Shown: positions 14,508-63,931 of the stretch, piece by piece | Layout of the letters: each line of letters begins with the position of its first letter | How positions within the stretch are numbered: the stretch's first letter is position 1 | Assembly (NCBI RefSeq): GCF_001677475.2 | Contig: NZ_CP015229.1 | Strand: one strand, 5' to 3' | Length of the DNA: 64,000 nucleotides | Origin: Escherichia coli | Lineage (GTDB): Bacteria; Pseudomonadota; Gammaproteobacteria; Enterobacterales; Enterobacteriaceae | The notes under the pieces: model-generated | Seen by the model: the letters and a program-made list of their open reading frames with translations, nothing else | What the model was told of the DNA's origin: nothing | The model's database searches: none | Program-made: the position numbers and the translations under genes

Positions 14508-14592
14508 GTAAGCGTAAACCGACCGCCGTATGTAGCCATTAGACAAGAATTGGTAACTTAGACGCCCATCTGACACAGACGGACATCTAAGT

Positions 14593-15012: not shown

Positions 15013-15359
15013 TCTCACTCCCATCCGGTACCCGTATCTGGCTCGTTGCCGGGATAACCGATATGCGTAAGTCTTTCAACGGGCTGGGTGAACAGGTACA
15101 GCATGTGTTAAATGTTAATCCCTTCTCCGGTCACCTGTTTATCTTCCGTGGCCGACGGGGTGACACCGTTAAAATTCTTTGGGCTGATGCTGATGGTCTG
15201 TGCCTGTTCACCAAACGCCTGGAGGAAGGCCAGTTTATCTGGCCTGCGGTGCGTGACGGTAAGGTATCCATTACCCGCTCGCAACTGGCAATGCTCCTCG
15301 ATAAGCTGGACTGGCGTCAGCCAAAAACATCCCGCCTTAACGCCCTGACAATGTTGTAA
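15009..15359 (+). CDS. IS66 family accessory protein (orfB/TnpB)
   Basis: 116 aa; ATGA overlap with orfA. Confidence 0.85.
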   Translation: MISLPSGTRIWLVAGITDMRKSFNGLGEQVQHVLNVNPFSGHLFIFRGRRGDTVKILWADADGLCLFTKRLEEGQFIWPAVRDGKVSITRSQLAMLLDKLDWRQPKTSRLNALTML

Positions 15360-15389
15360 AAAACGCCTGGCCGCATTATAAAAACGGCC

Positions 15390-16982: not shown

Positions 16983-17012
16983 GCGTCAATACGGTGCTCC
17001 GTTGACGCTTAC

Positions 17013-26267: not shown

Positions 26268-26270
26268 TCA

Positions 26271-28580
26271 CTAACCCTCTAATTCTTTGGCTATTTCCAG
26301 GTCAATCCAAATGTGATCATCAGCATCTTCCAGCACTGGTGCATCAACCACCGCATAGGACCAATCGTTAATCACCTCAAGCGCACCGCCGAGCATCAGG
26401 TTCCAGTTACTACACAACTCTGTCGCCTCTTTTCTGGACCATTGTTCTTTCTCCAGCAACCTGCGATAAAGTTGGCTATGAGCGGAGTCAAGTCCCCCTT
26501 CCCCGGTTAATGAGGCTGGAGCGCTTTCTGGTTGTTCTGGTTCTTCTTCAGTGAAAATTGAGTTCAGTAATTTACGAACATCATCAGTGGCAGATTCGTG
26601 GCGGGCAAGTACGTTGGCATCCAGCGTAAACCCTGCCGTCGACTGATTAGCTGGTACAGATGAAACGAGAGCAGTTTCAGTTGCGGAATGCTGATGGATA
26701 TTGCTTGATACGGATGAGGGATCCAGTCCCAGGCTTGTATAAATCTTCTCAAGCTGTTTGATTTCGGCAGGCGTAATTCTGCCGTCAGAGCAAGCGACAC
26801 TAACGATAACCTTACCCACAGCTGATTTTTCCGCTGCACCGAGTAATTCAATCCGGCTTTTCATTCCCGTCATATTCGCCGGAGTATGAAGCTGCCACGT
26901 TAAATATGCGTGCAGAGAGCGCTTTTCATCATCGCTGAAGCTGGCATTGTTGTTGATGGCATTCTCAAGCACTTTCTGTTCGGCTTGATCGAGAGAATTG
27001 TCAATCAAGGCGACTACCGAACCTAATCGGAGCGTCAATACAGCTGTGATAAATTCAGGAGAAGGTGAGAAACGTCCTCTTTCACCAGCAGGGAATAAAA
27101 CAAGTACACCATCGACATCTGCCTTTACGTGGTGGTGATAGGGGTCAGGAGCCAGACAGTATCCCATTTTCTGTGCAAAGGCTTGCATTAAGTCGGCCTC
27201 TTTTTTATTGATCTTCGCCGGACAGGTGGCATTCATATGTGACCAGTAGTCAGCAACTGAAACTATCCCACCCTTACTGCGGATTGCGTCATCAGCCCAG
27301 TGTTTGAATGTACTTAATATTTTTTCTGCGCTTTCGTTAACGATTTCTGAAGGCAGCAACAAAATTGCAGCGGTATCATTTGCTGAAGTACCTTTTCTAC
27401 CAAGGTAACGACTGTAAGCATCCAGTTCACCTGTGCATATATCGGCAATGGCCATAAGCTTCTGAACAGGGCCTTTCAATGCACCTGGATCAGGCAAGTC
27501 GGGAACAGGAAGCCGAATACCTCGCAAACTGGGACTTGCAGGCGTGTAATCTAAACGCAGACGCGCTTTATTCGGCTTCACTACCATCCCTTCACCGTAT
27601 TTAAGGGTGTAACGCCGTTTAAATAGTGCAGCAAATTCTTTCGCACAGCGGCGGGCGGGGGTTCGTAATGAGTATTCAGCATGGTTTGTCACCCACGTCA
27701 GAGCCAGATCCGCTGGAACCGGGGCTCCTGTATCAACAGTCTTTGCCAGGATTAACCTGAACTGCATGCTATTGCTGAACTCCGAATCATCGTTGAGAGC
27801 TGCTGCAAGATTTTCGTTCGGACGAAGAATGGACATCGCTTCAAGTAACTGGGATGAGTAATTCCGGAAAGATCGGTTTTCATTGAAAACCGATCTGAGA
27901 CGGCAGATCTCTTTGAAAAGAGAATAGAACTCATCGTCGGATATATTGTTGTCCCTGCTGTCAACAAGCGCCCTTCTTTCCAGACCATACAGATAAATGA
28001 AAACGTAACCAATTGGGCAGGAAGTGTCGCATCTGTCGCTGGCAAGCCAACTCAGGTACGCACCACGAGCTTCAGGTGAAAGTGAGGAAAAACTGGGCCA
28101 ATACCCTAATGAACTATCTTCGTAAATGTAAGGTGTGGGGGATATTTTAAGCGTGTCGTCAACTAGCGATGCCTCGTTATTGCCATCATAATAACCGCCT
28201 GAGTTATGCCCGGCAGGTTTCATACGCTGCCCAAGATAGAAGTGACCGCCGGTAACCTCTATCCCACTGACTGTGATCATCTCTCCCGGAAAAATCCAAC
28301 GAGCCAAAGCACCGGTAGTTTTTGAGAAATTCTGGCGTTGAGTGGCTGTTATGCTGTATTCGACATTCCGCCCGCCACTTAGTGTAAACGTAGCCAGATT
28401 GTCATCTTCGCTGTCCTCGTTTTGCATTACAGACTGATTTTTTTTGTTGTTAGCAAGCCATTCTTTAGGTGGTGCTTTCACAGGAGCGGAAGTATAAGAG
28501 CCCGCGGACTTAGTTTTCTTCTTTTTGAAAAAAAGAATATAAATCAAATAAATAGCTACTATAAATATCCATAACTCCAT
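26271..28580 (-). CDS. large N-terminally membrane-anchored protein, first gene of the candidate defence operon (SngA-like; TerB domain not verified)
   Basis: 769 aa; N-terminal hydrophobic helix MELWIFIVAIYLIYILFF followed by KKKK; 3-nt spacing to the ATPase gene. Confidence 0.7.
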   Translation of the reverse strand: MELWIFIVAIYLIYILFFKKKKTKSAGSYTSAPVKAPPKEWLANNKKNQSVMQNEDSEDDNLATFTLSGGRNVEYSITATQRQNFSKTTGALARWIFPGEMITVSGIEVTGGHFYLGQRMKPAGHNSGGYYDGNNEASLVDDTLKISPTPYIYEDSSLGYWPSFSSLSPEARGAYLSWLASDRCDTSCPIGYVFIYLYGLERRALVDSRDNNISDDEFYSLFKEICRLRSVFNENRSFRNYSSQLLEAMSILRPNENLAAALNDDSEFSNSMQFRLILAKTVDTGAPVPADLALTWVTNHAEYSLRTPARRCAKEFAALFKRRYTLKYGEGMVVKPNKARLRLDYTPASPSLRGIRLPVPDLPDPGALKGPVQKLMAIADICTGELDAYSRYLGRKGTSANDTAAILLLPSEIVNESAEKILSTFKHWADDAIRSKGGIVSVADYWSHMNATCPAKINKKEADLMQAFAQKMGYCLAPDPYHHHVKADVDGVLVLFPAGERGRFSPSPEFITAVLTLRLGSVVALIDNSLDQAEQKVLENAINNNASFSDDEKRSLHAYLTWQLHTPANMTGMKSRIELLGAAEKSAVGKVIVSVACSDGRITPAEIKQLEKIYTSLGLDPSSVSSNIHQHSATETALVSSVPANQSTAGFTLDANVLARHESATDDVRKLLNSIFTEEEPEQPESAPASLTGEGGLDSAHSQLYRRLLEKEQWSRKEATELCSNWNLMLGGALEVINDWSYAVVDAPVLEDADDHIWIDLEIAKELEG

Positions 28581-33390: not shown

Positions 33391-33466
33391 TGGTGCCCGG
33401 ACTCGGAATCGAACCAAGGACACGGGGATTTTCAATCCCCTGCTCTACCGACTGAGCTATCCGGGC
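33391..33466 (-). tRNA. pheV: tRNA-Phe (GAA anticodon)
   Basis: Reverse complement reads GCCCGGATAGCTCAGTCGGTAGAGCAGGGGATTGAAAATCCCCGTGTCCTTGGTTCGATTCCGAGTCCGGGCACCA. Confidence 0.95.
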
Positions 33467-46046: not shown

Positions 46047-46076
46047 GTAAGCGTCAACGGAGCACCGTATTGACGC

Positions 46077-47669
46077 TTATTTATTGGTGAGAACCACGTT
46101 CCATGGCAGGAGTTCGTCAACACGGTTGGAGGGCCATTCCGGCAGTACGCTCAGAATATGGCGCAGATACGCTTCCGGATCGATACCGTTCAGACGGCAG
46201 GTGCCGATCAGCCCGTATAGCAGTGCACCACGCTCGCCACCGTGATCGCTACCGAAGAACACGTAATTTTTCTTTCCAAGACAGACTGCACGAAGCGCTC
46301 TTTCCGCTGTGTTATTGTCCGTCTCCGCCAGTCCGTCATCACTGTAATAACAGAGGGCGTCCCACTGATTCAGTACATAGCTGAACGCTTCGCCCAGTCT
46401 GGATTTTTTCGACAGCGTGCCATTCTTCTCCACCATCCATTCATGCAGCGACGTCAGTAACGCTTTGCTTCGCTGCTGTCTGACTGCAAGACGCTCTGAC
46501 TCTGGTAATCCCCGTATTTCATCCTCGATGGCGTACAGTTCACTGATTCGCTTCAGGGCTTCTTCTGCCGTCGCACTTTTGCTGCTGATGTATACATCGT
46601 GGATTTTTCTCCGGGCATGGGCCCAGCACGCAACTTCTGTCAGCGCACCACCTTCACGTTCTGCACTGAACAGCCTGTCATAACCTGTGAACGCATCCGC
46701 CTGCAGGATACCCCGGAAGGGGCGGAGGTGTTGCTCCGGGTGTTTCCCCTGCCGGTTCGGTGAGTACGCGAACCAGACCGCCGGAGGAGATGACGAACCC
46801 GCATTGCGATCATCCCGGACATACGTCCAGATGCGCCCTGTTTTCGTCTTTTTCAAGCCCGGTGCCAGTACCTTTACCGGTGTGTCGTCAGTGTGAAGCT
46901 TGCGGGTATTCATCACATAACGGTACAGGGCATCATTCAGCGGCATCATTAACTGGCAGCACGCGTCAACCCAGTTGGAGAGTAATGCACGGCTCAGTTC
47001 GACACCCTGTCGGGCAAAGATTTCACTCTGACGATACAGTGGCAGGTGTTCGCAGTATTTTCCCGTTAACACGCGGGCAAGTAATCCGGGGCCCGCGATA
47101 CCACGCTCTATCGGGCGGGACGGCGCCGGTGCTTCAATGATGCAGTCACATTTTGTACAGGCTTTTTTTACCCGTTCTGTGCGGATCACTTTCAGGGCGC
47201 TGCTCACCAGTTCCAGCTGCTCAGTACTGACTTCCCCCAGATAATCCAGCTCGCCGCCACATTCCGGGCAACAACTTTCTTCAGACTCCAGACGGTGTAT
47301 TTCACGGGGAAGGTGTGCCGGTAACGGACGACGATGGCGCGACTGTCGCAACTGGCGGGGAACCTGTGGATCGTCTTCCCGCCCACTGTAACGATCGCTG
47401 TCCTGTTCGCGTTGTTTCAGCAGGGCCTCAGCCTGTTCAACTTCACGACGCAGTTTTTCAGAACGGGTACCGAACAGCATCCGGCGCAGTTTTTCTATCT
47501 GAGCCCGCAGATGTTCTATTTCCCGTTCATCTTCTTCGATCTTTTCTTCGGCACGTGCCAGTGCAGAGCGCAGGAAGGCCTCCGTCTCTTCAACCAGACT
47601 CAGTTGCTGGTCTTTCTGACGGAGCTGGCTTTCCAGTTCTGCAATGCGAATGAGGTATTTCTGACTCAT
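46077..47669 (-). CDS. IS66 family transposase (TnpC)
   Basis: 530-aa translation identical to that of copy 1. Confidence 0.9.
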   Translation of the reverse strand: MSQKYLIRIAELESQLRQKDQQLSLVEETEAFLRSALARAEEKIEEDEREIEHLRAQIEKLRRMLFGTRSEKLRREVEQAEALLKQREQDSDRYSGREDDPQVPRQLRQSRHRRPLPAHLPREIHRLESEESCCPECGGELDYLGEVSTEQLELVSSALKVIRTERVKKACTKCDCIIEAPAPSRPIERGIAGPGLLARVLTGKYCEHLPLYRQSEIFARQGVELSRALLSNWVDACCQLMMPLNDALYRYVMNTRKLHTDDTPVKVLAPGLKKTKTGRIWTYVRDDRNAGSSSPPAVWFAYSPNRQGKHPEQHLRPFRGILQADAFTGYDRLFSAEREGGALTEVACWAHARRKIHDVYISSKSATAEEALKRISELYAIEDEIRGLPESERLAVRQQRSKALLTSLHEWMVEKNGTLSKKSRLGEAFSYVLNQWDALCYYSDDGLAETDNNTAERALRAVCLGKKNYVFFGSDHGGERGALLYGLIGTCRLNGIDPEAYLRHILSVLPEWPSNRVDELLPWNVVLTNK

Positions 47670-47699
47670 GGCCGTTTTTATAATGCGGCCAGGCGTTTT

Positions 47700-48050
47700 T
47701 TACAACATTGTCAGGGCGTTAAGGCGGGATGTTTTTGGCTGACGCCAGTCCAGCTTATCGAGGAGCATTGCCAGTTGCGAGCGGGTAATGGATACCTTAC
47801 CGTCACGCACCGCAGGCCAGATAAACTGGCCTTCCTCCAGGCGTTTGGTGAACAGGCACAGACCATCAGCATCAGCCCAAAGAATTTTAACGGTGTCACC
47901 CCGTCGGCCACGGAAGATAAACAGGTGACCGGAGAAGGGATTAACATTTAACACATGCTGTACCTGTTCACCCAGCCCGTTGAAAGACTTACGCATATCG
48001 GTTATCCCGGCAACGAGCCAGATACGGGTACCGGATGGGAGTGAGATCAT
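47700..48050 (-). CDS. IS66 family accessory protein (orfB/TnpB)
   Basis: Identical translation to copy 1. Confidence 0.85.
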   Translation of the reverse strand: MISLPSGTRIWLVAGITDMRKSFNGLGEQVQHVLNVNPFSGHLFIFRGRRGDTVKILWADADGLCLFTKRLEEGQFIWPAVRDGKVSITRSQLAMLLDKLDWRQPKTSRLNALTML

Positions 48051-48466
48051 CTTCCCCTCCCGGTCAGTTCACGAATCAATACAGTGAGCAGCTCTGGTGA
48101 AGGATTTTCCAGCGTCATGTTACCGTGACGGAACTCCACCTTGCAGGAGCTGGCACTGACAGTAGTCTGAGTGGATAAGGGCGGAGTAAGAGCAGCCATC
48201 GGTTCTTTCGGCTCATCAGAGGTTATCTCTACAGGTAATAATTCAAGGCCTGCATCAGAAGTGGTTGTCACCGGAAGACGCCGTGATATACGCCCTTCGT
48301 TTTGCCAGAGTCTGAGCCATTTGAAAATAACATTATCATTGACGCCATTTTCTCGTGCAATCTGAGCCACACAAGCACCGGGTTGTGATGCCAGTTCAAC
48401 CATACGAAGTTTGAATTCATTCGAATACTTTTTACGAGGTTCTTTTCGCCAGTCCTGTAATTCCAT
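48047..48466 (-). CDS. IS66 family accessory protein (orfA/TnpA)
   Basis: Identical translation to copy 1. Confidence 0.85.
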   Translation of the reverse strand: MELQDWRKEPRKKYSNEFKLRMVELASQPGACVAQIARENGVNDNVIFKWLRLWQNEGRISRRLPVTTTSDAGLELLPVEITSDEPKEPMAALTPPLSTQTTVSASSCKVEFRHGNMTLENPSPELLTVLIRELTGRGR

Positions 48467-48551
48467 ACTTAGATGTCCGTCTGTGTCAGATGGGCGTCTA
48501 AGTTACCAATTCTTGTCTAATGGCTACATACGGCGGTCGGTTTACGCTTAC

Positions 48552-48880: not shown

Positions 48881-49682
48881 TTCCGCCGGTGATGGCTGTG
48901 TCAGAAACTGCCATCCCGGAATGGCCACGCAGACCGCCAGCAATGCCGTACAGACACCTGTAACAAACGTTTTCAAAAACGTGAGCGGGGATTTTTGAAG
49001 GAAGAGTGTGGGCTCTGTTTTTGTTTCAGAAACAACATACACCAGACGGGAGTGCGGCAGGGTCTGATGTTCCTGCACATCCGGAGCTTCAAGCCTGAGT
49101 GCCTGCGCCAGTAGCGTTACCGGAGACGATACTTCCCCCTGCACAGGCTGGTTCTCCAGGCGGGTGATATATCCCTTCACCATGGCTTCCGGTAAAGCCA
49201 CTTTACTGCTCTGTTTAAGTTCGTGCCAAGCCTGCGTATTTTCATGGAAGGAGATCACTCAGTGTCTTCAGGAATGTTTCGGTCTGATACAGCAGGGGCA
49301 GGTTGCCACGGTTATCCGGAGGCATGGCCCGGAGCGTTTTTTGCAGACGGTTGAACAGACCGGTAATAATTTCCAGCCGGGAGTGTGTATTCAGCGGCCA
49401 CATCACTGACCAGTGATGCCGGGTCAGCGCAGCAATCAGAGCCAGCCCTTCATTCAGACCACTTAACCCTGTTGTATGCATCCGGGCAATGGTGTACCAG
49501 GATGCCGTCTGTAATTCCACACCATTGTGTTCATACAGACGCAGGCAGAGCGTTTCCACGTAACGCCAGTCCACATCAGGGCGTGCCGGGTGGGTCAGTT
49601 TGCTGATTTCATCGCGCAGGGCAGCATAATCCGGTAATGACCGGGGGTCACCACCGGTTTTCAGTTTCACTTCAGAAGTCAT
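48881..49682 (-). pseudogene. N-terminal part of a TssA/ImpA-like gene (frameshifted, truncated by IS629)
   Basis: ORF 49242-49682 (…GGDPRSLPDYAALRDEISKL…WRYVETLCLRLYEH…, ImpA-N-like) and overlapping out-of-frame ORF 48878-49258 ending inside the IS629 terminus. Confidence 0.45.
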
Positions 49683-51863: not shown

Positions 51864-52055
51864 AAACGCACCTTAATCTGTGAACAAAAAAATAATCACC
51901 ACCGACACCCACGACGTTATATCGTGGGTGTCGTTTTATTCAGAAATAAAAAACAGAATCATTAACATGACCGGAATACTGTGAACCATGCTGCAGGATA
52001 TCTGCAGATATCCCTCCTGTTATATCCGGCCGGAATAAAATCAGAACACTGATTG

Positions 52056-53300
52056 TCAGGCAGCTTCATTTTCCGCGTACTCCAGACTCTGCAGATACTG
52101 CAGCGCCGCCGGATCAGCCACATATTCCACCTGCCCGTGGTGACGCTCCACTTCATTAATGATTCTCTCAAGTTTCACGCGGAAAAATTCTTTACGCAGG
52201 TTAATCCTGTTAATGCGGTATTTTTCCAGACTGTCATGAAGTGTTTTTTCCAGCGCGGGCGCATCATCACAGGAAATCATGGCGTGAACATCAAAATCAA
52301 ACGGAACAGAAGCACCACTTAACTCTTTGACCCTGTCCATGGGTTCCAGCCGTCGGGTCATACCAATTTTAAAGACATCCTCACCAAACGAACCAATATT
52401 CGAAATGATATAAACATGCCCCTGTTTCGTAAGCTGAGCCATGGATTTAGCACGTTCATACTGCGCATGCGCTTCCTGAATTTTCTGTTCCAGCGCCAGG
52501 CGTTGTTTCTCTAACGCCTCCCTGTGAGCCCCTTCTGCTGCACGCAGCGCCTCTTCAATCAGTTTCTGCTGCTCAGCAAGACGCCGTTCTTCCTCTTCCG
52601 CTTCCCGCTGGCGCCGGTCAAGTTCATCCTGACGCTCTTTTTCTTCACGCATCTGACGCTTAAGCTCTGCCTGATATTCCTTTTCTTCCTGCGCTTTTTC
52701 CAGTAATGCCACTTTGTCCAGAAACTGTTGCCTGACACTCTCCCAGTCAGAATTATCTTCCAGGTTAAGAAAGGCTATTTTCTCACTGACAGCAGCGTAA
52801 GCCTCTCTTTCCTTACGAAGCTGATCATATTTGTTTTGCCAGTTATTAATCGTTACACCAGCCAGCAGAGTTTTCGCCTTAAATTTCCAGGCGGAATCAA
52901 CAATCCGTTGCATTGCACGGCTGGCCTTCTGTCTGGCGGTATGAAACTCCTCACGACGTCTGGCAAGTTGCTTCTTTTCCTGTCGTATTCCCCGGGCTAT
53001 CGCGGCATTGACAGTTTCATTAAAATCCCGCTCCCTCTGAACCAGCTCCGAAACGGCCTGCTCAAAGGCTGCTGTTTTCTTTCTGAGTCTCCGGTAAATA
53101 AAAAAACGAAGTAAAATTGCAAATACAGTAAGCAAACCAAAAAACAAACCAATAATACCTGCCGGATTCGATACTGCATCAATAAAGCGCTCATTAAGAT
53201 TTATCAGCGCCCTGACCGCCACATAAATCCCCCAGAGAATAACGCAAATTAAAATCAGGACAAATCCCGCTGCATTATCATCTTTTTTTCTTCCTGCCAT
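52056..53300 (-). CDS. membrane-anchored coiled-coil protein with C-terminal T5orf172/GIY-YIG-like domain (DUF4041-like architecture)
   Basis: 414 aa; N-terminal hydrophobic helices, long E/R/Q-rich coiled coil, C-terminal GHVYIISNIGSFGEDVFKIGMTRRLEPMDRVKEL. Confidence 0.6.
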   Translation of the reverse strand: MAGRKKDDNAAGFVLILICVILWGIYVAVRALINLNERFIDAVSNPAGIIGLFFGLLTVFAILLRFFIYRRLRKKTAAFEQAVSELVQRERDFNETVNAAIARGIRQEKKQLARRREEFHTARQKASRAMQRIVDSAWKFKAKTLLAGVTINNWQNKYDQLRKEREAYAAVSEKIAFLNLEDNSDWESVRQQFLDKVALLEKAQEEKEYQAELKRQMREEKERQDELDRRQREAEEEERRLAEQQKLIEEALRAAEGAHREALEKQRLALEQKIQEAHAQYERAKSMAQLTKQGHVYIISNIGSFGEDVFKIGMTRRLEPMDRVKELSGASVPFDFDVHAMISCDDAPALEKTLHDSLEKYRINRINLRKEFFRVKLERIINEVERHHGQVEYVADPAALQYLQSLEYAENEAA

Positions 53301-53455
53301 GACTTTCCTTTATTTTCCTTCTCAGTAACTGAATATTTATGATTAACGCCCTCCGGAAATATTTATACCCGGAAGGTTGTCCGGCTTTATGATGCCCGCC
53401 ACTACAGAATTAACTGCAGGCTGAGCACAGATTCCTCTGCTATTTCAGTGTCAGA

Positions 53456-53857
53456 TTAATACTGATTACCGGAACAAATGGGCAGATGCGTAAATCCGGG
53501 TTTGCTGGCCATATAAAGCGGCGCACAGGTGGGTTTACGGGGTTCAGTGACCGGTACAGCCTCATTTTTCTCAGCCACCGACGGTTGTGACACCTTCCGG
53601 GCAGCCGCTGATTTTTTCTTCTGAACCGGCTTAGTGGCGACTGGTGATTTCACCTGACGTCTGGCGGGTGCCACGCCATAACCGGAACAAAAGCGCTTCG
53701 ACTGACTCAGACTTCCGTCATTGCAGACAAAACGTCCGTCCGACGTGCAGTGTGAAATACCACCTTTAGCACCCGAGCAAGGCTTTCTTCCCCGTGCTGC
53801 ATCTGCCTGAACAGAAAATAAAATACCTGCTAACAGAAGATATATAAATTTATTCAA
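53456..53857 (-). CDS. small secreted Cys-containing hypothetical protein
   Basis: 133 aa with signal peptide MNKFIYLLLAGILFSVQADA and several Cys; immediately upstream of the DUF4041-like gene on the same strand. Confidence 0.4.
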   Translation of the reverse strand: MNKFIYLLLAGILFSVQADAARGRKPCSGAKGGISHCTSDGRFVCNDGSLSQSKRFCSGYGVAPARRQVKSPVATKPVQKKKSAAARKVSQPSVAEKNEAVPVTEPRKPTCAPLYMASKPGFTHLPICSGNQY

Positions 53858-55056: not shown

Positions 55057-55815
55057 TTACCTGTACTCACAACAAAATGTATCCACTTTTTCCGGTCTGC
55101 CGAAATAAAACCCCTGCAGATAATCCACCCCCATAGAGCACAGACAGTTCACCTGCGCCTGTGTTTCCACACCTTCTGCCACCGTATCAATACCCAGCTT
55201 TCCTGCCAGCCCGACAATACTTTCCACGATATGCCGGGATGTCTTTTCACTCAGAATGTCCTGTGTGAAGCTTCTGTCCATTTTTATATAACTGACCGGG
55301 AAGTGCTTCAGGTACGACAGTACGGAACATCCGGTTCCGAAATCATCCAGCGCAAATGCCACTCCGGCATCACTCAGCCGGCTCAGTTTCTCTTCGGTCT
55401 GTCTGTCCATGTTAAACGGCTGCTGCTCCGTCAGCTCCAGAACCAGATGTATGCTGTCATGCCCTGCCAGCGCCAGACACATCTGAGTGAACTCACGCTC
55501 AGCCAGCAGGGCCGGCGTCACGTTCACGGCAAGCCGGAAACCACGCGGCAGCATGGCTTTAACCTCCGAAAGCCCTGCCACCGCACGGTTCAGGATTTTT
55601 TCCGTCACAGGCAACAACAGACCGGCAGATTCCACCCGGTTAATGAAATATGCCGGCGGAAGGATTTCTCCCGTCGGCATATGCCAGCGAACCAGAAGCT
55701 CTGCACCGGACATAGTAAGGTTGGATGCAGAAACCACCGGCTGGAGATACGGTTCAAACTCCCCGTTACTGAGCGCACGCATCAGTCTGTCTGCGGATAC
55801 AAAATCACTGTCCAT
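55057..55815 (-). CDS. EAL-domain protein (putative c-di-GMP phosphodiesterase)
   Basis: 252 aa with ELTE (EAL-type) and DDFGTG motifs. Confidence 0.7.
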   Translation of the reverse strand: MDSDFVSADRLMRALSNGEFEPYLQPVVSASNLTMSGAELLVRWHMPTGEILPPAYFINRVESAGLLLPVTEKILNRAVAGLSEVKAMLPRGFRLAVNVTPALLAEREFTQMCLALAGHDSIHLVLELTEQQPFNMDRQTEEKLSRLSDAGVAFALDDFGTGCSVLSYLKHFPVSYIKMDRSFTQDILSEKTSRHIVESIVGLAGKLGIDTVAEGVETQAQVNCLCSMGVDYLQGFYFGRPEKVDTFCCEYR

Positions 55816-56386
55816 ACTGTCGGTCTTCCATTTTATGAACCTCCCGGTCCAGCCCGGTCATCAACAGCATCCTGAAATCCCTGACGCCCACATTCTCTGC
55901 CAGCCGGGCATAATGCCAGTACAGCCCCCGTTCACTCTGTTTCAGATTCAGGGGACGGTCTCTTCCTCTCTCAGAAAGACGCTTCAGTGCCTGTCGTTGT
56001 CCGGACGTCAGGCGGAATTTACCGGTACGGGCTGTCTTTCTGTTCAGTGCCATGCGGACAGTTCTTTCCAGGCACGACAGCGACATGCATCCGCTGTACA
56101 CCGGGCAGATATTTCGCAACACCTTCAGCATTTCCAGCCTTTCCGGTACCAGAACCAGCATTTCACCGGGCATTTCTGCCCTCAGTTCACGTATCCAGGA
56201 CAGATGACGCCCCCAGCCCGTAACAGGCTCTGCACTCAGCGCCACAATAATCAGGTCCCAGCCATGCCGGGCACAGGGATACCCCGGAGGTACACGGTAA
56301 ACGTTGTGGCCCTGTGCGGATAACAGGTGCCACAGCCCTGTCAGCTCATACCAGCAGGTTCCGGTCAGAAGGATTTTTTGCCTCAT
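55805..56386 (-). CDS. putative regulatory protein downstream of the fimbrial genes
   Basis: ORF with ATG at 56386; helix-turn-helix-like C-terminal region; family not determined. Confidence 0.35.
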   Translation of the reverse strand: MRQKILLTGTCWYELTGLWHLLSAQGHNVYRVPPGYPCARHGWDLIIVALSAEPVTGWGRHLSWIRELRAEMPGEMLVLVPERLEMLKVLRNICPVYSGCMSLSCLERTVRMALNRKTARTGKFRLTSGQRQALKRLSERGRDRPLNLKQSERGLYWHYARLAENVGVRDFRMLLMTGLDREVHKMEDRQYGQ

Positions 56387-56519
56387 ACTTACGACCTTCA
56401 CCACATCAGTACCGCACAGAACATCACCAGTGTCAGTACCAGACATGCCATACAGGTTGCTGCCACACAGACACCAACCACCCACCACATCGGTATTAAC
56501 ACTTTTCGTTGCCGGGCCA

Positions 56520-57323
56520 TCAGAAATACCCCACCACCGGCGTCAGATTACCCTGCCAGCGTTTTACCGGCTCCTCAGCACCGGGGAAATTCACCCGCAC
56601 ATCACTCAGGGATGTCACCCAGGCACCGGCAATATGCTGGCTGCCATTCTCCTGTGACAACAGCGACTCAGCGCCTGAAATAAACACATCAGGACGCGCG
56701 GTTAACCCGGCATAGTCCGGGGTCCATTCATAGCCGTTCACCTGCCATAACTGGTGTTTTACCTGTTTTTCGGCCCCCGGCGTCACCTCTCCGCTGACCA
56801 CACTCCATCCATGCCCGGCAGTAATGTTGTCCTGCCATACCAGCAAATGGCGAACGGTGAACGTAATTTCCCCGTAACGCACCTGCCCCCGGGCAAGCTC
56901 TCCCCGGGCCTCAATACGGGGGGATGACGGTGTCACCTGAAGCAATGTCACTGACGGCTGCAGTCCCGGACGGGCGGTTGTCAGCGATGTGGTATGTCCG
57001 CCCAGAATATAAAAAACCTGCCCAGCCCGGCCTTCACTGACCATGCCACCTTTACCCGTTGTCAGACCAGCCTGCACGGCGTCTGGTGTACTCATCCGTA
57101 CAGAGTGGGGCTGCCACTGCCAGGAAACCTCAGGGACATACAGCGTGCCGCTGAATTCCGTCACCCCCACGGCCATCCCCTCCTGCCAGTGTCCCGGTGG
57201 AATAATCAGGGGCTGCGCCAGCACACTGGCTGAAGTCAGAAAAAACAGAGCCGGAAACATACCGGACTTCAGACGATGAATAATATTCAGCACCGGACCC
57301 TCCTCCTGCTTACTGGTACTCAA
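56520..57323 (-). CDS. fimbrial subunit/adhesin-like protein (paralogue 4)
   Basis: 267 aa; secreted; one of four tandem ~265-aa genes in a chaperone-usher cluster. Confidence 0.5.
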   Translation of the reverse strand: MSTSKQEEGPVLNIIHRLKSGMFPALFFLTSASVLAQPLIIPPGHWQEGMAVGVTEFSGTLYVPEVSWQWQPHSVRMSTPDAVQAGLTTGKGGMVSEGRAGQVFYILGGHTTSLTTARPGLQPSVTLLQVTPSSPRIEARGELARGQVRYGEITFTVRHLLVWQDNITAGHGWSVVSGEVTPGAEKQVKHQLWQVNGYEWTPDYAGLTARPDVFISGAESLLSQENGSQHIAGAWVTSLSDVRVNFPGAEEPVKRWQGNLTPVVGYF

Positions 57324-58098
57324 TACTTACCGGCAGTGACACCCGCCAGCGTTCCGGCATCGCGCCGTTCAGACGTAATTCAGCACTTCCTGCCACAGTC
57401 TGTGCACCATACGCACCTTCAATCTGGCGCAGGGAGGCATCACTGAAATGACTCACTCCCGAATAACCACTGACTGTCATTGTCTGCAGCCAGCCGGGGC
57501 CTTCGCCACTGAACATTTTCTGCAGAACACCCGGAATATCAGAAGCTTTCATGGCCGAGCTTTCACCAGGCAGGCCATTTGCATTCAGGTCGTCATACAC
57601 GCCGTCATACACCGGCTGCCCGTCCTTCACATGGCGCAACACCCCTGCAGTCTGCATTCTGAAAACAAATGTGCCTGCCCGGGCGTTATTATCTCCGGTG
57701 ACAGGCAGCGTCACCTCCGCCACGCCTGGTGCTGTCCATTCAAGCGAAAATCCCTCAGTACCCTTTCCGTAACTGACCCGGGGAGAAAGCCCCTCACGTC
57801 CTGCCGGTGTGGTCAGGGTGGTTTTTCCCAGTAAAACAGTCATCGCCGGTAGTGGAACCGGCACTCCCCCACCGTCACGAACACCGCGGCTCTGTTTAAC
57901 CTCCAGACCTTCATTTCCCTGCCCGACTTTCCACACCCACGGGTTACGGATGCTGGTCACCGGGCCTTCCAGCTTAAGCTCTCCGCTGAAATCTTCTCCC
58001 GGCGTGTTCCAGGCAAGTACACAGGAAGGCAGGAGGCTGGCAGCAAACAGAAACAACGTCACCTTTTTCATTTCTCTTCTCTCCTTATATCCCTGCAA
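57310..58098 (-). CDS. fimbrial subunit/adhesin-like protein (paralogue 3)
   Basis: 262 aa with signal peptide MKKVTLFLFAASLLPSCVLA; C-terminus ...VSIEYQ typical of pilin donor strands. Confidence 0.55.
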   Translation of the reverse strand: MQGYKERREMKKVTLFLFAASLLPSCVLAWNTPGEDFSGELKLEGPVTSIRNPWVWKVGQGNEGLEVKQSRGVRDGGGVPVPLPAMTVLLGKTTLTTPAGREGLSPRVSYGKGTEGFSLEWTAPGVAEVTLPVTGDNNARAGTFVFRMQTAGVLRHVKDGQPVYDGVYDDLNANGLPGESSAMKASDIPGVLQKMFSGEGPGWLQTMTVSGYSGVSHFSDASLRQIEGAYGAQTVAGSAELRLNGAMPERWRVSLPVSIEYQ

Positions 58099-58101
58099 CC
58101 A

Positions 58102-58905
58102 TCACTGTACCGTGACTGTCACATTCAGCCCCGCCTGCCATGCCGCAGGTGTACCCTCTGCCGGCAGACGCAGCTCAAAATCCGACACCGCAGAGGCATA
58201 TGCCGCAGCCAGATTCATCACCCGACCATCAGCCAGTATCCCCTGACTGATAACCTGTCCGTTATCCACCGCATTCATGCCATTTCCAAAATTCTGATTC
58301 ATCAGTAATAAGGCAGACAGACGGTTCTTCAGCCCCTGTGGCAGACTTCCCGGCTGTACATCCGTCACACTTTGTCCACTTACCAGCGACATACCGGCCG
58401 GTACGGATACCCCGTCTTCCTGTCGACCGGCACTGACTGCCATCCCCTGATTCAGGGTAAAAGAAAGCTGTCCCGACACATTTCCCGTTTCCGGGTCACG
58501 CACCGGGACAGAGGCGCGGAAACGTTGCGCCGTAGTGCCACTGCCTTCCTTTACGGTAAAAGGCTGTCCGTTACTGCTGAAGGTAATAAATGGCGTGAAC
58601 CCGGGACCACCGCGCTCTGCCACCTCATGCAGATGCCCCTCCAGAAACGGCAGAGCCCCTTTATCACGCAAATTAAAAACCAGTTGCCCGTTCTCTGTAC
58701 GTGCATCAGCAGTATCCACTGCCCAGGTCTGGTCCGGTGAACTTATCTGCCAGGTCCATTTGGGGGCTTCATCCGTGACAAAGCCGTTAAACTGAATTTC
58801 GCCGCCATCAAGAATATCTGCATGTGGTGCTGCCGAATAAAACAGGGTCACCGAAATAATGGCAGAAAGAAGGGATTTATAATGATGCGTTATTTTCATC
58901 GACAT
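58102..58905 (-). CDS. fimbrial subunit/adhesin-like protein (paralogue 2)
   Basis: 267 aa; C-terminus ...LNVTVTVQ. Confidence 0.55.
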
Positions 58906-59103
58906 TCACTCTGTTTTATCCGGAGGATACAGCCCCCCTCAAAGTAATTTGGTCAAATATAAAACAGCACAAAACCGACATGCGTCACAAAATATCAAAA
59001 TATCTGCTCCGCATGCCGATTCTGTGTATTCTGAACTCTAAAAACAGAGTCCAGAAAATTTAATCAACAGCAAACGAGGTATTTACTGTCAACGATTACT
59101 GAA

Positions 59104-59895
59104 TTACATGTAGGTAACAGTAATCGGCAGAGAAGCTGTCCAAGTTGTAGCATTAGACAGTGCGTTGCTAAGCTTAATATTAATAGATTGACCAGACTTA
59201 ATTCCTGAAGCATATAAACCAGAATAGGAATAATTGTTGCGATCAAAAGTATTTTCATCGTAGGCTCCGTTTCCGTCCGGGCCAGGAACAAAAGTCTCAT
59301 CAACACCGGGGAAAAGCGTAGACGCCAGATCAAGTGCTTCCTGAGTATCTTGTACTATATTATTTTCTGATTTACCCACACCACCATAAAAGGCCATCCC
59401 TGCTTTAGACGCATACATTGAGGATGAAACCCCTTCTACACCATATCCTTCATCTGCACTCCAGGATTTAATACCGCTGGAGGAAATTTTTGTGGTTAAA
59501 GTGCCGATAGTTTGAGAACCAGACTTAACCGATAGCGTCAAGTCAGCTGACCCATTAACAAAAGTATCCAGATCAACAGCTCCGTCATAACTAATTTGAG
59601 GCGTAATACCAGCCTGACCAGCAAACATCTTATGCTCTGTCGGGCGAATACCTAATATACTAATTGGGCTGGTCACATTAATTGTTACATCTTTTTGCCC
59701 GGCTTCAAGGGTTGCATCCAGATCTGTTACGTTATTACCGACAGCAACTGACCACGGATTCCCAGTCTGAGATGGAGGTGTCAGCTGACCGCCCATTTCA
59801 AAAGAACCATTAAAATCACCAGGAGTCCAGGCAAATACTGAACCAGACACAACGGCAGAAGTAGCCACTGCCAGTGCAATCAGAGTCTTTTTCAT
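59104..59895 (-). CDS. fimbrial subunit/adhesin-like protein (paralogue 1)
   Basis: 263 aa with signal peptide MKKTLIALAVATSAVVSGSVFA; C-terminus ...LPITVTYM. Confidence 0.55.
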   Translation of the reverse strand: MKKTLIALAVATSAVVSGSVFAWTPGDFNGSFEMGGQLTPPSQTGNPWSVAVGNNVTDLDATLEAGQKDVTINVTSPISILGIRPTEHKMFAGQAGITPQISYDGAVDLDTFVNGSADLTLSVKSGSQTIGTLTTKISSSGIKSWSADEGYGVEGVSSSMYASKAGMAFYGGVGKSENNIVQDTQEALDLASTLFPGVDETFVPGPDGNGAYDENTFDRNNYSYSGLYASGIKSGQSINIKLSNALSNATTWTASLPITVTYM

Positions 59896-60143
59896 AAAAA
59901 GAAATTCCTTTCAGATTTACAAAAAAACAAAAAATATAATTTATGCTGTATCAGCAACCCCTTTATCGGAATTACCGCAAAACCATCCCCTGCGGATTCA
60001 TTTAAATAACCGCACTTCATTAAACACATTGTTTAACTCAGAATGGTTTTACGTTATTCCCGTTAAAAAACGGTAAATCCCTTTACCAATATGACCCGTT
60101 CCGGAGTTACGGATGTATTGCATCTGTTGTCGGAGATGAATTC

Positions 60144-60635
60144 TCAGTCTTCCACCTGCAGCGCTATCTGCAGATTTCCCCGGTAACTGACCGGAACTTC
60201 CAGTTCTGCCGGTGCATCCGTTCTTAACTCAACCTGCTTCTGTGCTTCCGGCACGGTTATCACCACATCCTCACCCTGCTGTCTGGCACTGAGTGTCACT
60301 CTCTTTCCGTCAACCATCAGGGCCGTCTTCAGGGTGATGCGGGCTTCCCCGTTATCCGGCAGAGTCTGCTTCACCGTGATATACGTCAGGCCACCTGATG
60401 CCGCCCTGGACTCTGCGCTGCGGATGGTCAGGCTGCCGGGAAGAGGCGTCGTGTCTCCACTCCGGTACAGCACCGGGTCTGTCGGTGTACGGGTCACCTT
60501 CACCACACTGTTACCCACCACCTGACCGTTCACTACTCCCAGATACTGTGTTTTCTCGCTGTATTCAGCGGACAGTGCAGACTGAATACTGAACGCACTT
60601 AAAACAAGGGCGGCTGCCATCATTGTTTTCTTCAT
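60144..60635 (-). CDS. small secreted protein within the fimbrial cluster (possible minor subunit)
   Basis: 163 aa with signal peptide MKKTMMAAALVLSAFSIQSALSA. Confidence 0.45.
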   Translation of the reverse strand: MKKTMMAAALVLSAFSIQSALSAEYSEKTQYLGVVNGQVVGNSVVKVTRTPTDPVLYRSGDTTPLPGSLTIRSAESRAASGGLTYITVKQTLPDNGEARITLKTALMVDGKRVTLSARQQGEDVVITVPEAQKQVELRTDAPAELEVPVSYRGNLQIALQVED

Positions 60636-60669
60636 TTATTACCCCTCTGTTCCGTGTTCCGGAGGGCGG

Positions 60670-61545
60670 TTATTTTTTATCTGCTTTATCAGGCAAATTA
60701 ACCGACGAATCAGATACCTTCTCCCCGGAAGACGCTGACGTTTTTTTCTGGTTAATTGTCCAGGTCTGCAGTTCACCGTAATCATTCAGAGAATCCACTT
60801 TCACCACATTTCCCTTCACCTGCACTTCATCACCCGGCATGAACATCAGCAGTTTCTGTGCTGTCTCATTATCCGTGGCAATTTTCTTCCCGTTTCCGTC
60901 CAGCAGGCTGCCAATCGCAAAAATGTACGGCGTGGTGTTCACCAGCATAGTCCTGCCATCCGGGCGGCTCTGCAGGCTGAGTCCTTCCTCTGCCCCCTTG
61001 CGACCTTCAAGCAGTGCCTTCGGGCGATAGAACAGTTTCAGCTTCGTGCGCAGCGCCACCGCAATACCACTACCCTCCAGAGCCGGCGGAATATCCTGCA
61101 GGTTCAGCCAGTACACCGACTCCCTGTCCTTCGGCAGATGATCCGAGGCCATGATGATACGCAGTGTCTGCTGACCGTTCGGCTTCACCCTGAAGAAGGA
61201 CGGCGTCACCACAAAGGTCGGACGGGTGTCCTTCTCCACGATATTGTCCACCCAGGCCTGTCCACCAAAGGTACGTTCCTTGTCATTGTTGGTGACCGTG
61301 ATGGTCAGTGCATCCTTGTCTCCGCGAAAGATATAGCGGGTCTGGTCTGCTGCCAGGGAAGCCATCGCACTCTGACAGGTCATCATCAGCGCCAGGGTCA
61401 TCCCCAGCGTTTTTGTTACCCGGTTAGTGAAAAACTTCGTTACTGCACTACGCTTATTCACACGTAATCTCCTGTAGTTTCTCAGTATCCTGCAGTTTCT
61501 CCGCAGGTATCCGGCACCGCCCCAGAGTGATATCCCCCGGCGCAT
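60670..61545 (-). CDS. periplasmic pilus chaperone (PapD-like)
   Basis: Two-domain chaperone-like sequence; true start probably the internal ATG giving MTLALMMTCQSAMA signal peptide (about 61401). Confidence 0.75.
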   Translation of the reverse strand: MRRGISLWGGAGYLRRNCRILRNYRRLRVNKRSAVTKFFTNRVTKTLGMTLALMMTCQSAMASLAADQTRYIFRGDKDALTITVTNNDKERTFGGQAWVDNIVEKDTRPTFVVTPSFFRVKPNGQQTLRIIMASDHLPKDRESVYWLNLQDIPPALEGSGIAVALRTKLKLFYRPKALLEGRKGAEEGLSLQSRPDGRTMLVNTTPYIFAIGSLLDGNGKKIATDNETAQKLLMFMPGDEVQVKGNVVKVDSLNDYGELQTWTINQKKTSASSGEKVSDSSVNLPDKADKK

Positions 61546-63931
61546 CCACCGTGTTAATCATCAGTACGCCGTTGTTGGCCACAAAGCCCAGCGGCGTGTT
61601 CTTACTGTCACGTGCCCAGGTTCCGCCTGACACAAACTCACCGTCACGCTGCTTCACCTGCAGCAGGTAACGCTTAACTTTCAGGGCATCAAACGGCATC
61701 CACACCACCGCCCTGTCCGTCGGCACCACCTTCTGACTGGTGTTCGTCAGTTCGGTGCTCAGCGGCAGTGTGCCCGCATCAATCGTCACCGTGTTCCAGT
61801 CATAGCTGTTCAGCGGTACCACCAGGTTGCCGTCACTGTCAGTCTGTCCGTCACCGGATGTCACTTTCACTCCGGGCGTATCCTTCACGTTCACCACGGC
61901 CACGGTATCCCCGGTCGTGCGGCTGAACATAATGTCCTTCGCCGCCGGAACGGCCAGTACCGAACCACTGACCGAGACAGAACCACTGGTTCCGCCGGAC
62001 TGAGAGTGGTTCAGGGCACCACTCAGATAAGCCCGGTCACCGCTGTACGACGCGTTCAGATAACTGCTGGCACCGCCATCACTGTCACGACCACCGCCCA
62101 GACCATAACTGAAACGGTCATTCAGCGAGCCGGACACACCAGTGCTGAAGCCTGTGCCACCGTCTTTACTCGTACTCACCGACGTACTGCTGCTGTAGCG
62201 ACGGTCAAACAGCGTGAAAGGTACCGATACTGACGCCGATGCAGACCAGTTGTTTTCCCCCCGGGTGTTCCGTGAACCGGACCAGCCCAGGTTAAGACTG
62301 ACACCCTTAATCTGTGTGCTCAGGGTGCCGGTAATCCCCGTGTCCTTACCGTTGTCATCGCTGTACCAGTAACTCCCGGTCATGGATGCGGGGTAATAAC
62401 TCCGCTGCCAGCCGGACACCGACAGACTGAACAGACCACCCACCGGCTGACTGACACCGGCATTCCATTCCTCCTTCGTCCGGCGACCATGATTTGACTG
62501 CGACCACAACTCTGTCGGGTCAAAGGAGGACATGTCCTCATATTCCTCACTCTGCCGTGACCAGCTCACCCGCAGTCCGGTGTTCGTCATCTCCAGTTGT
62601 TTACTCCAGGATAACTGCACCTTATTTCCGCTGCGGCTGCCGTCACGGTATTTCGCCGTGGCATAAGCGCCGTCAGCAGACACCGCCCCCAGGTAACTCA
62701 GCCCCAGAACCGCCCCGGCGCTGACGCCCTGCCAGTCCTGGTTAAACACCCCGCCGGTGCGCAGTGTCAGCCCGTCCAGACCGTAACCGTATGACGCCGC
62801 AAACACACCGCCTTTCAGGTCACTGTCATCGTCAGGCAAACCGGCCGCCACACTGAACTCGTGCTGCCCGGGGCTTAACTGCCCGGCCATCACCGACAGC
62901 GGGAAGTTCTGCACATGTTCCCGGCCATCCTCGCCGGTCACCGTCATCTTCACATCCCCACTGGTGTACAGCGGCACATCCGTGATGGCGAACGGACCTG
63001 CCGGCACCATCTCCGAATGCAGCAACCGTCCGTTCTGCGTCAGTGTCACCCTCGACGGCCCGTCCGCAATGCCGCTGAAAACCGGGGTATACCCCAGATT
63101 GCCCGGCTTCATGCTGTTGTTCCGGCTCAGCGACACGCCGTACGTTCCCGTGCTGCCCAGCAGACTGTCCCCGGTGGATGTTTTCCCGACAGCCAGGTCC
63201 GCACTCAGTGCGCGGATGGCCCGGGTGGCCGTGAACATGTTTATCGTGGTGGAGTTATCCCCGCTGTCACCACCGCTGGCCGTGGCAGAAGAACTCACCA
63301 CCCAGCGCCCGATATTGGCTTTCAGGTCTGCTGAGCCAAAGGCCGAGGTGTTATTACGGCCGGTGTTGGCGTTCGCGTTATAGTTCACGCGAAATGCACT
63401 GGTCCCGTAATCCCAGTCCACATTCTCCGGCATCTTCACCAGCCCTTTCTGGGGAATGGACAGCGCCAGACTCTGGGTGGAAACATCAAAATCCACCTTC
63501 ACCGACGGGGCTTTTGTCAGCACATAGCACTGTCGTGTGGCGTCATACCCCTCACGAAAGTAATCCGCACTGACGTAAATCCCGGCCTTCGTCAGCCATG
63601 CCTCTGTCAGACACAGTTCATTACTGTCCTGTGGTGTCACATCCAGTATCTGTTTCCCGGCCTCCTTCCCGTTCAGGGACAGGTCAACCAGATAACGCCC
63701 CGGCGCATAGCTGCCGTTCAGGGCTGCCCAGACTTCCGGATTAACCCCGGCACCACCCTGGATAAAGGACATATCCAGTTTTTCACCTGCAACACCTGTG
63801 GCGCTGGCGAAAGCAGCTGATACGGCAAGCGCAAGTGTGGCCCGACGGAAAAATACGGACGAAACCTGTTTTGTGATTGTTTTTACTTCTGCACGCACAA
63901 TCTTTACTCTGTTACTGATACGTGACCACAA
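61454..63931 (-). CDS. fimbrial usher protein
   Basis: 825 aa; large beta-barrel-type protein with C-terminal Cys pair (…GRCRIPAEK…ITCE); track start is a non-ATG codon, true start uncertain. Confidence 0.85.
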   Translation of the reverse strand: MWSRISNRVKIVRAEVKTITKQVSSVFFRRATLALAVSAAFASATGVAGEKLDMSFIQGGAGVNPEVWAALNGSYAPGRYLVDLSLNGKEAGKQILDVTPQDSNELCLTEAWLTKAGIYVSADYFREGYDATRQCYVLTKAPSVKVDFDVSTQSLALSIPQKGLVKMPENVDWDYGTSAFRVNYNANANTGRNNTSAFGSADLKANIGRWVVSSSATASGGDSGDNSTTINMFTATRAIRALSADLAVGKTSTGDSLLGSTGTYGVSLSRNNSMKPGNLGYTPVFSGIADGPSRVTLTQNGRLLHSEMVPAGPFAITDVPLYTSGDVKMTVTGEDGREHVQNFPLSVMAGQLSPGQHEFSVAAGLPDDDSDLKGGVFAASYGYGLDGLTLRTGGVFNQDWQGVSAGAVLGLSYLGAVSADGAYATAKYRDGSRSGNKVQLSWSKQLEMTNTGLRVSWSRQSEEYEDMSSFDPTELWSQSNHGRRTKEEWNAGVSQPVGGLFSLSVSGWQRSYYPASMTGSYWYSDDNGKDTGITGTLSTQIKGVSLNLGWSGSRNTRGENNWSASASVSVPFTLFDRRYSSSTSVSTSKDGGTGFSTGVSGSLNDRFSYGLGGGRDSDGGASSYLNASYSGDRAYLSGALNHSQSGGTSGSVSVSGSVLAVPAAKDIMFSRTTGDTVAVVNVKDTPGVKVTSGDGQTDSDGNLVVPLNSYDWNTVTIDAGTLPLSTELTNTSQKVVPTDRAVVWMPFDALKVKRYLLQVKQRDGEFVSGGTWARDSKNTPLGFVANNGVLMINTVDAPGDITLGRCRIPAEKLQDTEKLQEITCE

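Follow-up and report, generated by a model that had tools for sequence, protein, structure and literature searches.

A SNIPE-like membrane-anchored nuclease gene in a type VI secretion cluster remnant of Escherichia coli

Introduction

PD-lambda-1 is a single-gene system of Escherichia coli ECOR26 (RCP76574.1, 500 aa; Vassallo et al. 2022, PMC9519451). HHpred places a DUF4041 domain at residues 197-252 of this protein and a T5orf172 domain at residues 357-448 (Vassallo 2022 supplement, PMC9519451). The system was later characterised as SNIPE, a membrane-tethered nuclease that cuts lambda DNA while it is being injected (Saxton et al. 2025, bioRxiv 10.1101/2025.11.03.685801). According to this preprint, SNIPE has one transmembrane (TM) helix and a periplasmic N-terminus. 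DNA is bound by the DUF4041 globular domain, which probably also binds the tape-measure protein and is required for both defence and DNA binding. In the GIY-YIG nuclease domain, the mutation E414A abolishes defence. In SNIPE homologues, the N-terminal part is highly variable, with a TM helix in 66% and two TM helices in 7% of them (bioRxiv 10.1101/2025.11.03.685801). Here we describe a 414-aa relative of SNIPE encoded in a stretch of 64,000 nucleotides of an E. coli genome (RefSeq assembly GCF_001677475.2, contig NZ_CP015229.1), referred to as the window.

Judged from sequence, the 414-aa protein would be a stand-alone, constitutively membrane-anchored T5orf172 endonuclease of the SNIPE/PD-lambda-1 superfamily. 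Its likeliest role is anti-phage defence at DNA entry, to which we assign a probability of roughly 0.6. Within an Enterobacterales type VI secretion system (T6SS) cluster, of which the window holds only a remnant, the gene has long occupied the slot between tssE and vasL, and it is dispensable there. The anti-phage reading is based on the homology to SNIPE, the intact catalytic residues, the predicted anchor, the behaviour of the gene as dispensable cargo, and its prophage-borne and defence-gene neighbourhoods.

Results and discussion

Homology to SNIPE

A 500-aa DUF4041-annotated protein from a lambdoid prophage of E. coli (L010:5754-7256), chosen by length and annotation, was used as a stand-in for SNIPE. 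BLASTP aligns about 200 residues of the window protein (aa 211-406) to this protein with 52% identity (E 3e-60). No significant similarity is detected by BLASTP upstream of residue 211. The catalytic Glu414 of SNIPE aligns with Glu351 of the window protein. The window protein has all 16 residues found to be invariant in an alignment of 136 family members; those in the nuclease domain are G294, Y297, N301, G303, G306, K311, G313, R316, R317, R323, E351, N364 and E371. The characteristic features of the GIY-YIG superfamily are found as well, including the beta strands, a conserved Arg, the catalytic Glu, an Asn and the alpha/beta fold.

Two PADLOC profiles for PD-Lambda-1 recognise the protein, one with an E-value of 3.8e-88 (294.5 bits, profile positions 264-476 of 491) and the other with 4.8e-83 (277.7 bits, positions 189-475 of 496). 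For calibration, the L010 protein scores 658 bits over positions 1-485 and a P2-prophage homologue 401 bits over positions 36-481, compared with 294 bits for the window protein. A Foldseek search of AFDB50 returned GIY-YIG / DUF4041 family proteins throughout the result list, and weak matches of the nuclease domain to Slx1 were also obtained. No close solved structure was found; the family-profile search of PDB sequences gave spurious coiled-coil and TM matches only. On these sequence comparisons, the homology of the window protein to SNIPE/PD-lambda-1 is near certain.

Architecture of the protein

An earlier note on this DNA, made from the letters alone, had described N-terminal hydrophobic helices, a long charged coiled coil and a C-terminal T5orf172/GIY-YIG-like domain, and all three were recovered. 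Two TM-like segments are seen by hydropathy, with cores at residues 13-33 and 47-68. An AlphaFold2 (AF2) model, calculated with an alignment of 136 relatives, has a mean pLDDT of 84.8 and contains helices at residues 10-43, 46-147, 154-174, 186-254 and 258-292, followed by a compact alpha/beta domain at residues 294-388. About 220 residues of long charged helices lie between the TM helices and the nuclease domain. Pfam matches are MUG113 (2.3e-18, aa 310-386) and T5orf172 (9.4e-17, aa 294-386), and nothing else in Pfam is significant. The segment quoted in the earlier note, GHVYIISNIGSFGEDVFKIGMTRRLEPMDRVKEL, corresponds to residues 294-327.

The two TM helices are connected by a loop of 13 residues, NLNERFIDAVSNP, which is conserved within the clade of close homologues. 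The flanks of the helix pair, MAGRKKDD and YRRLRKK, are rich in Lys and Arg. Following the positive-inside rule, we infer a hairpin anchor with both termini in the cytoplasm (N-in/C-in), and the loop NLNERFIDAVSNP is predicted to be periplasmic.

Many Enterobacterales have full-length homologues of 414 aa at 75-98% identity (E down to 1e-256), and ~147 of 5,426 complete E. coli genomes carry the gene. It is therefore a genuine gene rather than a chance open reading frame (ORF). RefSeq labels it only as 'GIY-YIG nuclease family protein'. Inside the clade, conservation is highest in the middle region, the linker and the nuclease (major-allele frequency 0.93-0.96), a pattern that points to purifying selection on a working protein. 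In the window, the ORF has its full length and keeps every family-invariant residue. Frameshifted and truncated copies of the nuclease are common in databases. To be noted, the 'N-terminal-only' proteins P0125, P0128 and P0191 are such frameshifted copies and were rejected as domain swaps.

The middle region is a reduced counterpart of the DUF4041 core

Several points weigh against the anti-phage reading. The two PD-lambda-1 profiles are matched over their C-terminal 43-58% only. The architecture of a membrane-associated nuclease acting on phage DNA, as proposed in the earlier note, is supported in part: the protein is a true SNIPE relative. The Pfam DUF4041 model (PF13250) is not detected in the window protein, even at E<=10. 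About 50 residues of the SNIPE globular domain (aa ~134-184) have no counterpart. Two TM helices and a cytoplasmic N-terminus are predicted here, while SNIPE has one TM helix and a periplasmic N-terminus. Finally, the nuclease is as conserved as TssE across genera and diverges together with tssE and vasL. Such stability is unusual for a defence gene and would be compatible with a link to the T6SS.

A DUF4041 match had been proposed in the earlier note as a check, and it failed: no precomputed DUF4041 match exists in any of the 120 closest homologues either, and the domain is present in 18 of 40 more distant relatives. A weak similarity is seen between profiles. In a non-circular hhalign comparison, residues 90-215 of the clade match 52 DUF4041 segments with a probability of 58% and an E-value of 1e-4, in the expected register. 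A hidden Markov model (HMM) built from clade residues 100-200 reached one DUF4041 protein only, with a marginal E-value of 0.004, at the right place. The score of 100% obtained by hhalign between two alignments with shared members (A2 vs A3) is circular; it was used for the residue register and not as evidence. Asn153, which corresponds to Asn218 of SNIPE, is at least 90% conserved in both alignments, and Trp138 aligns with the nearly invariant Phe203 of SNIPE.

The AF2 model of the L010 protein (pLDDT 89.6) contains an additional loop, a helix at residues 146-165 and beta strands at residues 173-184 between the long helix and the DUF4041 core, and none of these has a counterpart in the window protein. 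From the DUF4041 core onward, the secondary structures of the two models are colinear. Since Pfam is negative, the profile match is weak but colinear and about 50 residues are missing, the region does not qualify as DUF4041 in the sense in which that domain is defined. The middle region is a reduced and divergent helix-loop-helix core, and about half of the SNIPE globular domain is gone.

The loss in this domain, which in SNIPE probably binds the tape-measure protein, raises the question whether the nuclease would be a general anti-phage enzyme. It could be a barrier to other incoming DNA such as conjugative plasmids or transforming DNA, it could provide a narrow-range superinfection exclusion of the prophage type, or it could be an inactive relic in this strain. 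The decayed state of the locus amid IS elements and the many frameshifted or truncated copies would agree with this. However, the full-length ORF with all invariant residues and the purifying selection on the middle region, linker and nuclease argue otherwise, and no link between the locus and conjugation genes was found. We consider this group of explanations unlikely.

Location in type VI secretion clusters

The main context of the gene was overlooked in the earlier note: it is located in the remnant of a T6SS cluster. Close homologues from Serratia and Enterobacter (414 aa, 75-80% identical) are encoded between tssE and a gene with ImpA_N and VasL domains, on the same strand and with short gaps. 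A scan with one genome per species identified 18 loci at >=70% identity, and nearly all of those with flanks show the tssE-vasL position. The hosts are Serratia, Enterobacter, Pluralibacter, Huaxiibacter, Salmonella enterica subsp. arizonae, Tenebrionibacter, Kosakonia, Lelliottia and Rosenbergiella; the slot is occupied by the nuclease also in Klebsiella. The exception is a truncated copy in Citrobacter braakii. Among the ~40 distant homologues (<60% identity), none has T6SS neighbours.

In the window, the nuclease gene is followed by a helicase gene, a 146-aa ImpA_N fragment, an IS3 remnant and a copy of IS66. Because the ImpA_N fragment follows the helicase gene, the locus is identified as the decayed end of a T6SS cluster. 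This remnant is part of an island associated with tRNA-Phe (tRNA at 33391-33466), and the core genes of the window are 98.1% identical to those of E. coli genomes. In E. coli PapRG-06-5 (L071), an apparently complete T6SS cluster adjoins the same tRNA-Phe with its vasL end nearest, and the nuclease gene within it is a C-terminal pseudogene. A nuclease pseudogene in an apparently intact T6SS cluster is also found in Rosenbergiella (L027).

Across ten intact loci the mean identity is 84% for the nuclease, 83% for TssE and 72% for VasL. The divergence of the nuclease correlates with that of tssE and vasL (Spearman 0.65 and 0.56, descriptive values only, as the pairs are not independent), and it does not track TssF, TssG or TssJ. 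From this match in conservation and divergence we conclude that the nuclease is an old resident of the tssE-vasL block.

The T6SS clusters themselves (L002-L026) are mosaic. Two lineages are distinguished by TssF, TssG and TssJ (~62% vs 93-97% identity), and these lineages do not match the tssE-nuclease-vasL block (75-95% identity). Judging from these sequences, the end block seems to have passed between two cluster backbones by recombination. A conserved 156-aa protein (L006:4991-5461; orthologues in L018, L019, L022 and L108-L111) is encoded directly after tssE in most of these clusters, with or without the nuclease, and has no match in Pfam or PADLOC.

The residence of a SNIPE-like nuclease in T6SS clusters is not mentioned in the SNIPE preprint or in the open-access literature searched. 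This search also gave no relevant open-access paper on T6SS together with T5orf172/GIY-YIG, on NERD/UvrD defence or on the function of YdcA.

The nuclease behaves like defence cargo

To avoid a bias from seeding with the nuclease, a further sample of six T6SS cluster ends was drawn via VasL homologues, independently of the nuclease. The nuclease is intact in only one of them (Klebsiella michiganensis) and present as a remnant in two: Pectobacterium retains residues 254-389 together with ydcA and NERD remnants, and Cedecea residues 367-414. It is absent from the clusters of Edwardsiella, Pantoea and Erwinia. A T6SS component is expected to be intact wherever the cluster is intact, and this is not the pattern of the nuclease. 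Given its rarity in these clusters and the pseudogenes in apparently intact ones, it is dispensable for the T6SS and behaves like defence cargo in a hotspot.

Other defence genes are found in the same sample. Kiwa (KwaAB) is encoded just beyond vasL at three of the six loci (L108, L110, L113), and Hachiman (HamAB, consisting of HamA and a DEAD helicase) beyond vasL at two. The vasL end of the T6SS cluster thus looks like a defence-gene hotspot. The order past vasL is a conserved unknown gene of ~215 aa, then Kiwa, and in two loci Hachiman (L108:6383-11380, L110:6389-8547, L113:6404-11386).

The nearest outgroups of the T6SS-slot clade are prophage genes. One is L22 of phage phiP27 (P27p22, NP_543074.1, 409 aa; L070:3701-4930), with 63% identity over residues 117-413. 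It lies in a lambdoid Stx2e prophage, with the Q antiterminator gene on one side and the tRNA/stx2e region on the other. The place between Q and the stx region is typical of prophage accessory (moron) genes. Another relative, P0121, is 65% identical and belongs to a Mu-like prophage. Full-length matches in IMG/VR (L075-L077, L082) were not accepted as proof that the 414-aa form itself is phage-borne; they contain the ydcA-nuclease(-NERD) block and are situated at the margins of predicted proviruses.

These data bear on the question whether the nuclease serves the T6SS. It could be a functional accessory, for example a membrane-anchored partner of VasL, the TssA-like cap protein, or a secreted effector or nuclease toxin. 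The same-strand arrangement with gaps of 15-75 bp between tssE and vasL in many genera, the conservation at the level of tssE and the divergence that follows tssE and vasL would support such a role. It is contradicted by the single intact copy among the VasL-sampled clusters, by the C-terminal pseudogenes in the apparently complete clusters of L071 and L027, by the nearest relatives being prophage genes, and by ~95 E. coli genomes in which the block is kept without adjacent T6SS core genes. For an effector in particular, a PAAR, Rhs, MIX or VgrG domain and a cytoplasmic immunity gene next to it would be expected, but Pfam shows none of these domains and no such gene was found. The genes beside the nuclease are vasL or encode a secreted YdcA-like protein or a helicase, and the stable N-in/C-in hairpin, as predicted, points to the membrane of the producer itself. 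A role as T6SS accessory or effector is therefore very improbable.

A functional coupling of the T6SS-slot clade to the T6SS is conceivable but doubtful. Co-transcribed with tssE and vasL, the nuclease might sit with its clade-specific two-helix hairpin at the T6SS envelope complex and guard the breach, or cells engaged in combat, against entering DNA. If true, this would connect a contractile weapon with an entry-site nuclease in a way not described before.

Neighbouring genes and other features of the window

Features of the locus are listed in Table 1. The 133-aa gene that the earlier note placed 155 bp upstream of the nuclease gene on the same strand was found as described, and its length equals the RefSeq annotation of an orthologue. 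Read directly from the sequence, the N-terminus of its product, MNKFIYLLLAGILFSVQADA, is a typical Sec signal peptide. The protein further has a Cys-rich YdcA-like N-terminal part of 58 aa and a C-terminal extension. Of 13 species-representative loci with the nuclease, 10 also contain the YdcA-like gene, but each of the two is also found in the absence of the other, the nuclease in Serratia (L002, L014, L021) and the YdcA-like gene in Erwinia (L110). The long ydcA is present in ~104 complete E. coli genomes. The suggestion that the small secreted protein is a partner could thus not be maintained in the sense of a dedicated one; its gene looks like a further occupant of the tssE-vasL slot.

On the other side, a NERD/UvrD helicase gene starts 192 bp downstream of the nuclease gene, and RefSeq names its 595-aa product '3'-5' exonuclease'. 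It is present in 614 of the 5,426 complete E. coli genomes vs ~147 for the nuclease. It occurs without the nuclease in L108 and L112 and is missing from most nuclease-bearing loci of other genera. In the intact clusters L002, L108 and L112, its stop codon overlaps the start of vasL by 14 bp. In O157:H7 strains, the copy is truncated by IS66.

Table 1. Features of the nuclease locus in the window
Feature	Position	Strand	Basis
SNIPE-like membrane-anchored T5orf172/GIY-YIG nuclease gene, 414 aa	52056..53300	-	ORF with ATG start; Pfam; PADLOC PD-Lambda-1; homologues; AF2 model
TM helix 1, aa 13-33, preceded by basic N-tail MAGRKKDD	53202..53264	-	Hydropathy; AF2 helix 10-43
TM helix 2, aa 47-68, followed by YRRLRKK	53097..53162	-	Hydropathy
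Middle region, aa 129-200, helix end-loop-helix; short divergent counterpart of DUF4041 core	52701..52916	-	hhalign; N153 conservation; colinear secondary structure; Pfam negative
Charged helical hairpin, aa 201-292, family motif EKE.Q..[IL].RQMREE; joins middle region to nuclease	52425..52700	-	SNIPE alignment; AF2 helices 186-254 and 258-292
T5orf172/MUG113 (GIY-YIG clan) nuclease domain, aa 293-390	52131..52424	-	Pfam; invariant residues; E351 = SNIPE E414; weak Foldseek matches to Slx1
YdcA-family secreted protein gene, 133 aa	53456..53857	-	TTG start; NCBIfam PRK10040 sub-threshold; PF27300 on orthologues
NERD + UvrD-like helicase gene, 595 aa	50076..51863	-	PADLOC candidate C3a187, 1e-142
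Hairpin, 12-bp GC-rich stem, T/A runs on flanks, terminator-like on both strands	51903..51933	.	Between nuclease and NERD/UvrD genes
ORF of 146 aa, N-terminal ImpA_N part of vasL/TssA-like T6SS gene	49242..49682	-	NCBIfam TssA; tblastn to VasL; RefSeq pseudogene in L001

The nuclease might work only within a multi-gene system, together with the NERD/UvrD helicase, the YdcA-like periplasmic protein or both. The three genes are on one strand in the window and in ~95 E. coli genomes. The same trio is found in Enterobacter sp. kpr-6 (L013), in a metagenome-assembled genome of an uncultured member of the Enterobacteriaceae (L018) and on the IMG/VR contig L082. The frequent presence of the YdcA-like gene and the conserved, predicted periplasmic loop of the nuclease would also agree with a joint function. 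On the other hand, the nuclease lacks NERD/UvrD in Enterobacter and many other genera and YdcA in Serratia, both neighbours exist without it, a terminator-like hairpin separates the nuclease and NERD/UvrD genes, and SNIPE and phiP27 L22 are single genes. Since each of the two neighbours occurs without the nuclease, they are not obligate partners, and dependence of the nuclease on them is quite unlikely. On the evidence of co-occurrence and pseudogenes, the effector, core-component and obligate-partner readings were rejected.

Outside this locus, the window contains a complete Shango system at 22756-28580 (-), consisting of SngA (TerB-like, 769 aa), the ATPase SngB (438 aa, 8.7e-187) and the helicase SngC (732 aa, 4.6e-278). 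Two identical IS66 copies of 2,505 bp are present in inverted orientation at 14508-17012 and 46047-48551. The 29 kb between them are inverted relative to other E. coli (L071, L074), and the inversion was probably mediated by IS66. The inverted segment holds ibrAB, Shango, an integrase, tRNA-Phe and core genes (yqgA, speC, nupG, mltC, mutY ... yggM). Three ORFs of 328, 170 and 196 aa with a low GC content (38-43%) are located at 12387-14511 (+), between hemW and the left IS66 copy, where hemW directly adjoins yggM in other E. coli. They have no PADLOC match.

The region at 55057-63931 (-) adjoins the ydcA-like gene and encodes an EAL-domain protein, a LuxR-type regulator and an F4 (K88)-like fae fimbrial operon with faeH/I/J-like subunits and an usher. 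In other E. coli genomes, CdiA (VENN) toxin fragments follow the same block instead (L001). Because of this difference, the junction near 53912 is taken as a rearrangement point.

Proposed mechanism and significance

In the proposed mechanism, the two-helix hairpin would be embedded in the inner membrane, and its two ends would face the cytoplasm. The helix of ~100 residues, the short basic helix-loop-helix (the degenerate DUF4041 core) and the helical hairpin would keep the nuclease near the inner membrane face and off the nucleoid. Foreign DNA would be cut while it is threaded through the inner membrane, as for SNIPE, and the variable N-terminal part together with the middle region may set which entry machinery is recognised. 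We infer the nuclease activity, the phage phenotype, the target and the sparing of self DNA from homology.

SNIPE brought a new principle, by which self and non-self are told apart by the location of the DNA, not by its identity. The window nuclease would be a natural minimal SNIPE, in which anchor, linker and nuclease are kept and half of the DUF4041 domain is gone. If this minimal form still defends, it narrows the requirements for recognition of the entry site and provides a smaller protein for structural work. Furthermore, in a group of Enterobacterales T6SS clusters the tssE-vasL slot and the region past vasL hold the SNIPE-like nuclease, the NERD/UvrD helicase, Kiwa and Hachiman, and thus place anti-phage genes inside the locus of an anti-bacterial weapon. 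These positions offer a simple rule by which further candidates can be found, among them the conserved 156-aa protein and the YdcA-like proteins. Rules based on Pfam or on full-coverage HMMs will miss the clade of the window nuclease.

Comparison with known systems

The window protein is best described as a distinct SNIPE variant with a reduced middle domain, a hairpin anchor and long-term residence in a T6SS slot. Like SNIPE, it has an N-terminal membrane anchor, long helices and a C-terminal T5orf172/GIY-YIG nuclease. The linker (EKEEQ..MREE) and nuclease are 52% identical over the last ~200 residues with the catalytic Glu kept, a colinear helix-loop-helix with the conserved Asn (Asn218 in SNIPE, Asn153 here) is found at the position of the Pfam DUF4041 core, and the gene behaves as a single-gene system. 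Apart from its anchor, it differs from SNIPE in length (414 vs 500 aa). In addition, the SNIPE-type genes examined are in prophages (lambdoid in L010, P2-like in L011), whereas the close homologues of the window protein occupy the T6SS-cluster slot.

The phiP27 L22 protein shares the short middle region, the linker, the nuclease and an N-terminal TM anchor with the window protein. By its coverage of the PADLOC profile, positions 265-481 only, it likewise shows no Pfam-type DUF4041 match. It differs in its N-terminal 100 aa, which are unrelated and contain a single TM helix, and in its prophage location. L22 belongs to the same subclade with a short middle domain and is a candidate for a defence gene of the prophage. 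Zorya and Kiwa resemble the window protein in their membrane location and in acting at or near the site of phage DNA injection, but they are multi-gene systems of unrelated proteins, in which no sequence similarity to the nuclease was found.

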